From Escherichia coli (GTDB taxonomy: Bacteria > Pseudomonadota > Gammaproteobacteria > Enterobacterales > Enterobacteriaceae): 64,000 nucleotides of DNA. The first letter of the stretch is position 1, and every line of letters begins with the position of its first letter. The stretch is from the NCBI RefSeq assembly GCF_045037415.1, contig NZ_CP173438.1. The stretch is one strand, 5' to 3'. Positions 18,394 through 49,899 of this stretch are shown in pieces. The translations under genes were made by a program, and so were the position numbers. Under the pieces are notes generated by a model. The model ran no database searches, was not told the DNA's origin, and saw only the letters and a program-made list of their open reading frames with translations.

Positions 18394-20019
<1,626 letters not shown>

Positions 20020-46903: not shown

Positions 46904-47068
46904 TTACATATTCTTGATGATCGCGTCACCAAACTCTGAACATTTCAGCAGTTTAGCGCCTTCCATCAGACGTTCGAAGTCATAGGTTACGGTCTTCGCA
47001 TTGATTGCGCCTTCCATACCTTTAACAATCAGGTCTGCGGCTTCAGTCCAACCCATGTGGCGCAGCAG
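46904..47068 (-). pseudogene. icdC: Isocitrate dehydrogenase 3'-terminal fragment (icdC-type duplicate marking the prophage att site)
   Basis: The minus strand encodes [54 protein letters not shown], the Icd C-terminus, with no upstream icd sequence. Similarity stops abruptly at 47068, where AT-rich phage DNA begins. Confidence 0.9.
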
Positions 47069-47249
47069 TATATAAAAATTATGTATTCAACTCGCTGATA
47101 TTTAATCATAAATATTATTTTCTTGTCTTTGTATTAGCCAAAATCAACTTTATTCAACCGTTTGATTTCATTGACGTTCGTTTTTATTTTGGGGAAAGAT
47201 TTTCTCTACCATTTATATCAAAATTACAAGTCTACATTTTATTAACATC

Positions 47250-47405
47250 TCAATACATGTGTGGCCTTGCAAGCCATTGCGAGGCCTTATGTGTCTCAGT
47301 TTTGTCCCGCCTTGTATTACGACTTGCATAGCCAATGAAGATAAACGTGACGACAAACAAAGCAGCTGTCTTCTTTTCTTTCACACTTTCCCCACTCAGC
47401 AGCAT
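47250..47405 (-). CDS. Hypothetical 51-aa single-TM protein downstream of the 256-aa orphan
   Basis: Hand-translated: MLLSGESVKEKKTAALFVVTFIFIGYASRNTRRDKTETHKASQWLARPHMY*. SD-like agaagg lies 5-9 nt upstream. Same strand as the 256-aa ORF. Below the ORF-track length cut-off. Confidence 0.3.
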   Translation of the reverse strand: MLLSGESVKEKKTAALFVVTFIFIGYASRNTRRDKTETHKASQWLARPHMY

Positions 47406-47527
47406 GCATACCTTCTACTATAACTGTAGTGAATGTCTATTATGAGCGAACTGCGGACATCGTGGAGACAACATGCTGCTGGGTGCGGATATCCCATGGC
47501 ACGTCATATCGCTCGCCGTATTACTTG

Positions 47528-48298
47528 TTATTTTTTTGAAACGAGAAGTTGATACAATTCCTTCAGGGATAAGGCTAATAACTCATTCTTCCTGATGAGA
47601 TCTTTATCAGCGTCTATACCCTCTGCGCATGATTCATTTAAATAGTTCAGTGTTTCCTGATCATCATCCAAGCATTCATAGCTGCCTGAATAAAATTCAT
47701 CGCAACTTGCTTTGTTATTTTTGTCAATGTAACCAATGCATTGAATCACGCCTTTAACAACTTTAGCAGCAGAAAAAACAAAGTAACTGCAGTCATTTAT
47801 ATAGCGTTCAATATCAAAAATCATATAAAAATAGTGCATAGAGTGTTTTTCAATTTCAAACTCACTTGAAATCATAGCTATTTCACATTCAAGGTCTTTC
47901 AGACCATCTAACATTATGGAAAGTTTACATTGTTTTTCTTGCACAGTTTCATACTTAAATGACTCTCTCCCCTTTGCCCTGACATTTATTCTTTCTTCAA
48001 TTGCATAAATATAAGCAGGATATACACGCGACCACACTTGGTTTATTTTTAGGATTAACCGGCCTCTTTTCAGCCTTTCTTTTGTAGCTATAAATTCTGC
48101 ATATAGCGCAGCATCCTCTTCGCACCATACATCAACTTTTCGTTTATAACCCAACTTTAATTCTTTCCCTACGCATTCAGGAAACAAAGGATCAAAGTCC
48201 TTTAAGTATTCAAACTCACTTAGATAGAATCCTGTCTCATAACGATTAAATAATTTCCTAAACTCTTTCCCACTTAAGGTTTTCATTGTATCAATCAC
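47528..48298 (-). CDS. Hypothetical 256-aa protein, no family recognised (prophage cargo next to attR)
   Basis: Long uninterrupted ORF in very AT-rich DNA, where random ORFs of this length are unlikely. Start is GTG at 48298 or ATG at 48286. No recognisable catalytic motifs. Confidence 0.65.
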   Translation of the reverse strand: MIDTMKTLSGKEFRKLFNRYETGFYLSEFEYLKDFDPLFPECVGKELKLGYKRKVDVWCEEDAALYAEFIATKERLKRGRLILKINQVWSRVYPAYIYAIEERINVRAKGRESFKYETVQEKQCKLSIMLDGLKDLECEIAMISSEFEIEKHSMHYFYMIFDIERYINDCSYFVFSAAKVVKGVIQCIGYIDKNNKASCDEFYSGSYECLDDDQETLNYLNESCAEGIDADKDLIRKNELLALSLKELYQLLVSKK

Positions 48299-48889
48299 TC
48301 TGTTTTCATAAAAGCAAAGTCAACAAGATAAAACAATAAAAACTCTTACACAACCAGCTGATGTTTTTAAAATAGAGGATAATATAAGACAAGCATAACC
48401 TCGTTCACTTCAATGCTACTCCTATCGTTCTTTTGCGTCACAGAGCGCCTGCCGGACAACTGCATCATAGACCAAACGGAACTGCTTCCGTCGATTAATC
48501 AGATGGCAGCGCATAAACACGCTCAACAACCCGTTTGACTGCTTCAATTTTAAGCTCTTCGGAATAACGCTTACCGTGTAAGTCTCCCTGCAAAACGAGC
48601 TATCAACTTTTAAGGAGTCTCTGGCCCCCCTGCTTCCGCTCCTGGCACACAGCAGCCCTAGAGACAGTGGAGTAAAGTCATGGAGGCTCGGTGGGGGGAG
48701 GTGCAAATCCTCCCATACAAAAAATACGAAAATCAGTAACGGCTAGAAATCATTCAATACATGCACTCTCGAAATTGCATCAGCCAACCGCAAAACGTTA
48801 TTTCAAAGCCTACTAGCTGCCTTACTTTTTTCCTCAATAACGCGTCGCCAGCAGGAAACAACCTAATCCCTGTTTTGGGCCTCAAAGCT

Positions 48890-48908
48890 GCTAATGATAA
48901 TCATTTTC
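48890..48908 (+). promoter_or_regulatory. Fur box upstream of sitA
   Basis: GCTAATGATAATCATTTTC matches the consensus GATAATGATAATCATTATC at 17 of 19 positions. Confidence 0.8.
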
Positions 48909-48930
48909 ATTTTGTATAGGCTGTGCTATA

Positions 48931-48952
48931 AAACATAGCCGTTGCTATATTT
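48931..48952 (+). promoter_or_regulatory. MntR-type palindrome upstream of sitA
   Basis: AAACATAGC-CGTT-GCTATATTT resembles the mntH MntR box AAACATAGC..GCTATGTTT (recollection). Confidence 0.6.
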
Positions 48953-48984
48953 GTTCTAATTTTGCTCACTATAGGTACTAAATT

Positions 48985-49899
48985 ATGCACTCGATAAAAA
49001 AAGTAACCATGCTCTTGGGGGGGCTCGCACTCACCTGCTCGATCGCATTTCAGGCAAGTGCAACTGAAAAATTCAAGGTCATTACAACATTTACCATCAT
49101 CGCGGATATGGCCAAAAACGTGGCGGGAGATGCTGCAGAAGTCTCATCCATAACCAAGCCTGGTGCAGAAATTCATGAGTATCAGCCTACCCCTGGCGAT
49201 ATTAAACGTGCGCAGGGGGCACAACTGATTCTCGCCAATGGTATGAATCTGGAATTGTGGTTCCAACGCTTTTACCAGCATCTCAATGGGGTTCCAGAAG
49301 TAATTGTCTCTTCGGGTGTGACGCCTGTAGGGATCACCGAAGGACCCTATGAGGGCAAACCTAACCCCCATGCATGGATGTCGCCAGATAATGCTCTGAT
49401 TTACGTCGATAATATTCGTGATGCGTTGATAAAATACGATCCGGCAAATGCACAAACCTACCAACGCAATGCCGATACTTATAAAGCCAAGATTACCCAA
49501 ACCCTTGCCCCCCTGCGTAAGCAGATTACGGAACTCCCTGAGAATCAGCGATGGATGGTCACCAGTGAAGGGGCTTTTTCTTATCTCGCACGCGATTTGG
49601 GGCTAAAAGAGCTTTATCTGTGGCCGATTAATGCCGATCAACAAGGAACACCGCAGCAGGTACGTAAGGTTGTTGATATAGTTAAGAAAAATCATATCCC
49701 GGCAGTCTTTAGCGAGAGTACGATTTCCGATAAACCAGCGCGTCAGGTTGCGCGTGAAACCGGCGCACACTACGGCGGTGTGCTCTATGTCGATTCCCTG
49801 AGCACAGAAAACGGCCCGGTACCGACGTATATCGACCTTCTTAAGGTTACTACCAGTACGCTGGTACAGGGAATTAAAGCTGGGAAAAGGGAGAAATAA
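48985..49899 (+). CDS. sitA: Mn2+/Fe2+ ABC transporter periplasmic binding protein SitA
   Basis: 304 aa with a signal peptide. Cluster-9 (PsaA/YfeA-like) sequence with EIHEYQPTP and PHAWMSP. Confidence 0.92.

Follow-up and report, generated by a model that had tools for sequence, protein, structure and literature searches.

Does the DNA that separates the sitABCD operon from the neighbouring genes of a lambda-like prophage in Escherichia coli encode anything of its own, such as a small protein or a regulatory RNA for sit, or is it what remained when the operon was brought in? The question is raised by positions 48299-48889 of a 64,000-nucleotide stretch of DNA (hereafter the window), which derives from a chromosome of the phylogroup B2/ST131 type and is 100% identical to the corresponding DNA of e.g. 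JJ1887. Our answer is that this interval is very probably a non-coding junction region without a dedicated function, put together from four pieces of different origin. From left to right these are: the right end of an imported 1.2-kb block, which brings a 256-aa ORF, the AT-rich DNA upstream of it and a dead 73-bp relic of the IS3 family; a decayed copy of a ~165-nt non-coding module that lambda-like prophages have in their backbone; a breakpoint (48797-48800) within the hairpin of that module; and the distal part of the sit upstream region. The junction would have arisen by illegitimate recombination where the two partners share a short stretch of similar sequence, and the regulation of sit would be carried by Fur- and MntR-type boxes and a promoter at 48890-48984, rather than by the flagged interval.

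Genomic context of the spacer

The gene order in this part of the window is: bluR, ycgX, a partial duplicate of the 3' end of icd, a 256-aa ORF on the minus strand, the spacer and sitABCD on the plus strand, beyond which the minus strand carries two small ORFs, the tail-fibre genes and gpJ. From this gene order it follows that sitABCD is cargo of a lambda-like prophage that occupies icd, and that it lies between the end of this prophage and its tail-fibre genes. The complete spacer (48299-48984) measures 686 bp and extends from the 256-aa ORF (47528-48298, minus strand) to sitA (48985-49899, plus strand), the first gene of the operon. It is without annotation in the RefSeq genomes that are 100% identical to it. 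The same spacer, with 99.6-100% identity, adjoins sitABCD in the sequenced phages 1H12, ev207, Lambda_2E9 and PhiR57_1. Indeed, the full operon is found on GenBank phage genomes, such as those of the Jouyvirus 1H12 (NC_049947.1; L005 3397-6846), ev207 and their relatives; hence, this metal-uptake system is cargo of complete phage genomes and extends beyond decayed prophages. The spacer is also 100% conserved in more than 700 genomes; however, as these belong to closely related B2 lineages, such conservation says little about selection.

Several chromosomal sites are known at which prophage-like DNA carries the sit island (PMC7545054, citing Fisher et al. 2009). In the ‘PAI sit’ islands of Shigella and E. 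coli prophage remnants, as far as they are summarised there, sitABCD is likewise prophage-like cargo, and the chromosomal sit loci compared here, which lie at the icd, ydfJ and uspF/ttcA sites, have Fur/MntR-type operators upstream as in ‘PAI sit’. Nothing essential differs between the two: what is added here is a detailed map of the upstream junction and the occurrence of sit on either side of a backbone module. A related case is seen in EPEC E2348/69 (L170 5131-5730; NC_011601.1 1580130-1580729), where a frameshifted ‘metal ABC transporter permease’ lies beside uspF and an integrase fragment beside ttcA; these are apparently the remains of a sit-carrying prophage of the Rac site.

An earlier note on this DNA had described the interval as a GC-rich block between two AT-rich genes. 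The gene to the left is AT-rich (34.1% GC), and it is only against this neighbour that the block appears GC-rich: the central part (48421-48799) has 48.8% GC and equals the window mean of 48.7%, and the flagged interval as a whole has 44.5%. Nor is the right-hand neighbour AT-rich, with 48.4% GC in sitA and 50.2% in sitABCD. The same note's description of the interval as an apparently non-coding spacer upstream of sitA is borne out, since it is intergenic, unannotated in RefSeq and lacks a coding signal. ARAGORN identified no tRNA gene in 47000-49500.

Homology blocks of the spacer

The blocks that make up the spacer were delimited from partial matches across 5,426 complete E. coli genomes, in which both the blocks and their breakpoints can be read directly. 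The left part, 48299-48653, is matched only in STEC strains. Other sit loci share with the window 48728-48984, 48797-48984 or 48848-48984, the second of these being the segment present in plasmids. A comparison with the sequences flanking sit in other E. coli loci had been recommended in the earlier note, and such loci are among the partial matches from which the block structure and the breakpoint were read.

The sit upstream region proper (48799-48984, plus strand) has homology to a uspF/Rac-site locus (L134; 97.9% identity), a ColV-type plasmid (L136; 82.7%) and, from 48848 onwards, a further locus, L135 (94.9%). The ydfJ/Qin-site locus has 48730-48984 in common with the window, and a second icd-site variant only 48848-48984, which is the smallest part common to all the sit loci compared. 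The segment 48799-48889 is conserved among independent sit loci and could, judging from this conservation, hold an undescribed upstream regulatory site.

A conserved module of the prophage backbone

To the left of the sit upstream region, window positions 48635-48799 are homologous to phage lambda 24184-24348 (NC_001416; L006 3501-3665), with 80% identity over 165 nt. Matches to both phage and IS sequences, for which the earlier note had suggested a search, are present in the spacer: this homology and a fragment of an IS3-family transposase gene at 48504-48576. The lambda segment is an unannotated gap between ea47 and ea31 in the b-region, and agrees with the window copy in orientation and in its placement with respect to the tail-fibre genes. 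In general, the module is located between the tail-fibre/cargo side and the int/att side of lambda-like prophages.

We collected 120 further copies of the module from viral contigs with a 22-nt motif, the 22 columns of which are therefore invariant by construction. Read on the tail-fibre strand, the layout consists of variable cargo, an A-rich run, a hairpin and a well-conserved stretch of ~80 nt. What comes next after it is one of three things: a convergent dinI-like gene, beginning with its stop codon; a ~90-nt ‘extension’, as in lambda, the window and many prophage copies; or other DNA. Covariation bears out the hairpin, with 89.4% of the cells paired and compensatory changes in 9 of the 11 pairs; none of 500 shuffles reached the observed pairing, compensated pairs or covariation score, and with the partners slid by 1-3 columns the pairing falls to 24-55%. 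RNAalifold on the raw MAFFT alignment missed this hairpin because of gaps in the loop, and an explicit pair count was used instead.

On the opposite strand, which is that of dinI, int and ea31 (plus in the window), the hairpin of intact copies is followed by a T-run. Intact hairpins have a median of 13 pairs and -18.8 kcal/mol, 52 of 82 copies have at least four T among the 8 nt that follow, and folding of intact copies gives terminal hairpins of 12-14 bp followed by U-runs; on the other strand, there are never more than three T after the stem. Intact copies are thus predicted by folding to possess the GC-rich stem-loop and U-run of an intrinsic terminator. The simplest reading is that the module constitutes the 3' untranslated end and the intrinsic terminator of leftward transcripts, situated between the convergent early and tail operons, where it would normally end the leftward transcription of dinI, int or ea31. 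In lambda, the hairpin is intact but the U-run is weak; the window copy, in contrast, is without the distal arm of the hairpin and has a deletion and substitutions in the core.

The canonical 108-nt core is matched at 18,481 places in 5,411 of the 5,426 complete E. coli genomes, with a median of three per genome, and 4,227 genomes hold a copy that covers at least 80% of it. It is either unannotated or mislabelled as a spurious ‘capsid protein’ fragment. Copies include one in the Qin prophage of K-12 (L010 2471-2566; NC_000913.3 ~1632470-1632571, plus strand) and another at L004 3001-3081. In E2348/69 (NZ_CP059840.2; L171 3501-3598), a copy lies ~95 nt after the intS stop codon in an argW prophage with baseplate and sheath genes, so that the module extends beyond lambda-like siphoviruses. 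When species-representative genomes are compared, only those of Escherichia and Shigella have the exact motif, apart from matches with the appearance of lambda contamination. The latter are from assemblies of Pseudomonas, Shewanella, Streptomyces, Enterococcus, Paenibacillus and others (L144, L148, L166; short contigs L140, L143, L146, L154 and others), on contigs that are often ~48.4-48.5 kb long or of very low coverage, and look like contaminating phage lambda DNA.

The intact copies in the lambda, O157 and K-12 loci have no match in Rfam, and a full-text literature search with the core sequence returned no papers. In the same loci, the Rfam entry IS009, a described ‘RNA’ family that lies within coding sequence, strongly matches a segment of the tail-fibre-assembly gene in both lambda and Qin (~220 bits; L006 1633-1831; L010 4345-4543). 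The layout of the intact module, with its conserved ~80 nt, GC-rich hairpin and U-run, often immediately behind the stop of a dinI-like or integrase gene, resembles that of 3' UTR-derived RNAs and of prophage small RNAs of pathogenic E. coli such as AgvB/AsxR, PasA-D and svsR. However, the module is not homologous to AgvB/AsxR, PasA-D or svsR, none of them is found at its position, and the window copy is truncated. AgvB/AsxR belong to the PR' moron site and svsR to the 3' end of cI; PasA-D occupy different positions, and the PasB probe also differs in sequence; EcOnc31/43, from the end of Sakai Sp5, have no homology to the module. In the EPEC Hfq RIL-seq data, the integrase locus tag E2348C_2486, which flanks one module copy, is absent among the entries listed. 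Protein coding through the core was likewise rejected, as the substitutions are spread evenly over the codon positions, one copy has an in-frame stop (alignment A2) and the dinI-type context is without a start codon.

The module is thus ubiquitous, supported by covariation and undescribed in the resources searched. We consider it rather unlikely that this element of ~110-165 nt is an unrecognised functional RNA of temperate coliphages, either a small RNA derived from the 3' UTR and terminator or a terminator that insulates the early-left from the tail operon; the copy upstream of sitA would then be a relic of it.

The truncated copy and its junction with sit

The window copy of the module consists of two parts, both given on the plus strand: the ‘extension’ (48635-48727), which equals approximately lambda 24348-24256, and a decayed ‘core’ (48728-48799), with 84% identity to the canonical core over 70 nt. 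In this core, the canonical TAAAAT reads GAAAAT after a 1-nt deletion, and there are several substitutions. Homology to the module ends at 48798-48799, in the left arm or the loop of the terminator-like hairpin, and the fold of the window copy is devoid of a terminal hairpin, a loss that is observed directly. A terminator scan of 48250-49050 found none; the rule used allows only loops of 3-8 nt, and on this account misses the module hairpin. With no match in the scan, no T-run behind the hairpin at 48696-48714 (see below) and the module hairpin truncated, the window copy does not qualify as an intrinsic terminator.

At the breakpoint (48797-48800) the loop of the module hairpin is joined to approximately position -187 of the sit upstream region, and from these positions onwards the DNA is homologous to the sit loci of the plasmid and the Rac site. 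The two sides share a patch of similarity here (ATTTCAAA versus ATTGCATA). The sequences around the crossover, AACGTTATTGCATAC in the module, GTCATTTCAAAGCC in the sit upstream region and AACGTTATTTCAAAGCC in the window, suggest an illegitimate join at this short patch. The closest relative of the window copy is intact and belongs to the sit locus at the Rac site (L134 7685-7837; NZ_AP040205.1), where it lies downstream of sitD. With an intact copy downstream of sitD and a truncated one upstream of sitA, sit is found on either side of the module. In the L134 locus, a short CAGCA repeat brackets an extra 260 bp.

The G/C runs and the hairpin to which the earlier note had drawn attention are all present as claimed, with CCCCCC at 48625-48630, GGGGGG at 48693-48698 and the hairpin GGGAGG-TGCAAAT-CCTCCC at exactly 48696-48714, inside the extension of the module. 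The hairpin is unexceptional: on the plus strand it folds with -15.7 kcal/mol (z = -1.87; 8 of 200 shuffles are as good) and on the minus strand more weakly (z = -0.92); it is not a terminator, as no T-run follows it on either strand, and its stem is not conserved in the lambda copy. A reading as a tRNA-like T-arm was rejected because ARAGORN was negative and because of this lack of conservation in lambda. Over the same positions, the minus strand has a proline-rich mini-frame of 12 codons (MGGFAPPPTEPP, 48679-48717; elsewhere MRGFAPPPTDPP or MREFVPPPTDHL), which is kept open in several copies of the extension; it is without a Shine-Dalgarno sequence, has an early stop in one copy and is probably due to chance.

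Putative control sites upstream of sitA

Recognisable candidate control sites of sit lie just to the right of the flagged interval. A Fur-box-like site (GCTAATGATAATCATTTTC, 48890-48908, plus strand) with two mismatches to the 19-bp consensus is the only one in the 64 kb of the window, where 0.01 are expected. It is followed by an MntR-box-like palindrome, AAACATAGC-CGTT-GCTATATTT (48931-48952, plus strand), with one mismatch to the consensus and none expected by chance; this consensus is that of the E. coli mntH operator. At 48948 within the palindrome, the window has an A (GCTATATTT), as against a G in the four other sit loci compared, which makes the palindrome perfect (GCTATGTTT); the A may weaken MntR repression in the lineage of the window. 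A plausible promoter, read from the sequence, is TTTTCA and TATAAA spaced by 17 nt at 48903-48931. Both boxes belong to the segment common to all sit loci. In Salmonella, sitABCD is reported to be repressed by Fur and by MntR (PMC8970401), and by analogy the region upstream of sitA, outside the flagged interval, would act as a Fur- and MntR-repressed operator. Thus, sit operators of a known type are located right of 48889.

It had further been proposed that the interval could hide a regulatory RNA for sit. Searches with the Rfam 15 covariance models over 47400-49400 on both strands gave no match at E <= 1, and the sole RNA-like element is the decayed phage module, shorn of its terminator hairpin. 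As nothing links this module to sit regulation, the proposal is unsupported. A more specific version would be that the truncated module is transcribed towards sitA, giving a small RNA, or a read-through transcript or long leader that modulates sitABCD. Read-through into sitA is conceivable because the decayed module points towards sitA and its terminator is lost: the strand presumed to be transcribed is the sitA strand, the junction falls exactly where the hairpin is cut away, a second prophage, at the ydfJ site (L133), keeps this module-sit junction, and 48728-48798 retains 84% identity to the canonical core. Nevertheless, we regard this version as improbable, since the -10-like hexamer TAAAAT conserved in other copies is damaged here (GAAAAT), there is no convincing -35 in any context, consensus promoter scans found nothing in the module, no Rfam family matches, and L134, L135 and the plasmid sit loci are without an upstream module, yet have the same Fur/MntR region. 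A sigma-54 reading of CTGGCAC was rejected for want of a TTGC at the required spacing.

The imported block and its IS3-family relic

The left part of the spacer belongs to a block of 1,211 bp (47443-48653), which is 99.67% identical over 1,211 bp to DNA of strain STEC1585 (L132 3145-4355). There it lies in an unrelated island beside GTPase and Ag43 genes, without sit. The block comprises the 256-aa ORF, its upstream region and the IS3-family relic, and even the first 19 bp of the module's extension are common to both copies; the block boundary lies at 48653. The 256-aa hypothetical protein at the left border of the spacer (RefSeq WP_000567449.1) belongs to no Pfam family, and PADLOC gives only a sub-threshold match (E = 0.0034). 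Directly upstream of its gene is AT-rich DNA (48299-48420; 30% GC), which presumably holds its promoter region; a consensus scan of this segment found no minus-strand promoter and a single plus-strand match that is within chance expectation.

The relic (48504-48576, minus strand), recognised by nucleotide and tblastn matches, corresponds to codons 3-26 of OrfA of an IS3-family transposase gene (GKRYSEELKIEAVKRVVERVYA). Over 73-74 bp, 85-88% of its nucleotides agree with the 5' ends of genes annotated as IS3-family transposases; it no longer has a start codon, and further on comes a 1-nt deletion, with a stop soon after. Its translation reads GKRYSEELKIEAVKRVVERVYA against MSGKRYPEEFKIEAVKQVVDRGYS in the reference IS, with 17 of 27 identities in tblastn (E = 3e-10 when only the 502-nt region was searched), and residues 8-25 of the frame-repaired translation match Pfam HTH_Tnp_1 with E = 0.016 and 15.9 bits, below the cut-off of 24.1 bits. 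Similarity to the reference IS does not go beyond 74 bp, the spacer has no ORF of the OrfB type (DDE, programmed frameshift), and a search for terminal repeats and target duplications found no inverted or direct repeats that bracket either the IS3 fragment or sit. Comparable OrfA pseudogene fragments of the IS3 family are known, e.g. the partial ‘transposase’ beside yagB in the CP4-6 region of E. coli ER1709 (L008), which has the same 5' stretch at 85-88% identity. Given that in the window only ~24 codons survive, with no start codon, OrfB or recognisable terminal repeats, the fragment is a relic and not an insertion sequence.

A strict IS scar, in which sitABCD was brought in by an IS3-family element whose remains mark the point of insertion, might be suspected from the OrfA fragment 410 bp upstream of sitA and from the IS1 copies that border plasmid sit loci. 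It is very unlikely: the fragment is part of the left block and present without sit in STEC1585, the phage module separates it from the sit DNA, sit is not flanked by inverted repeats or target duplications, and other sit loci are without the fragment. Having come with the left block, which is found elsewhere without sit, the fragment cannot be tied to the arrival of sit. With this reservation, the earlier idea of a scar is broadly right: an IS3-family fragment, a block boundary at 48653 and a breakpoint at 48797-48800 are all present.

The 94-aa frame

The only remaining coding candidate is the frame at 48422-48706 on the minus strand, previously described as start-less. Its coordinates and the absence of an ATG stand, but it does begin with a TTG. 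The surmise that it is the C-terminal stub of a larger protein fails, as it has no Pfam match and no longer parent among 5.8 billion proteins: only six clusters were recovered, all with at least 90% identity, none longer than 94 aa and all from E. coli where the source gives a name. The frame spans three unrelated blocks, namely the IS relic, which it reads out of frame, junction DNA and the phage module. The true transposase relic, an N-terminal end of OrfA, uses a different minus-strand frame and ends before the C-terminal peptide quoted in support of a stub begins. That this frame, or the 75-aa version called in phage 1H12 (gp30), represents a real small gene of phage or cargo could be argued from that gene call and from identical ORFs deposited as hypothetical proteins, but is scarcely credible given the TTG start, the lack of a Shine-Dalgarno-like purine run directly upstream on inspection of the sequence, the want of any family or of other than near-identical relatives, the passage through unrelated blocks and the silence of RefSeq PGAP on it. 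The frame is hence spurious.

Implications

The finding is an ordinary one: junction DNA of this sort, left over where lambda-like prophages carry sitABCD as cargo at their variable end, is already known. For the regulation of sit, the place to look is the 95 bp directly upstream of sitA; the flagged interval itself matters little. The backbone module, being very widespread, structurally constrained, unannotated and present even in phage lambda, merits a look at the level of transcripts. The map of the junction, in turn, shows how sit moves: the same cassette occupies three different attachment sites of prophages, and it lies on one side of the conserved backbone module in some loci and on the other side in others, a pattern of placement that fits the exchange of cargo via recombination in conserved flanking sequence.
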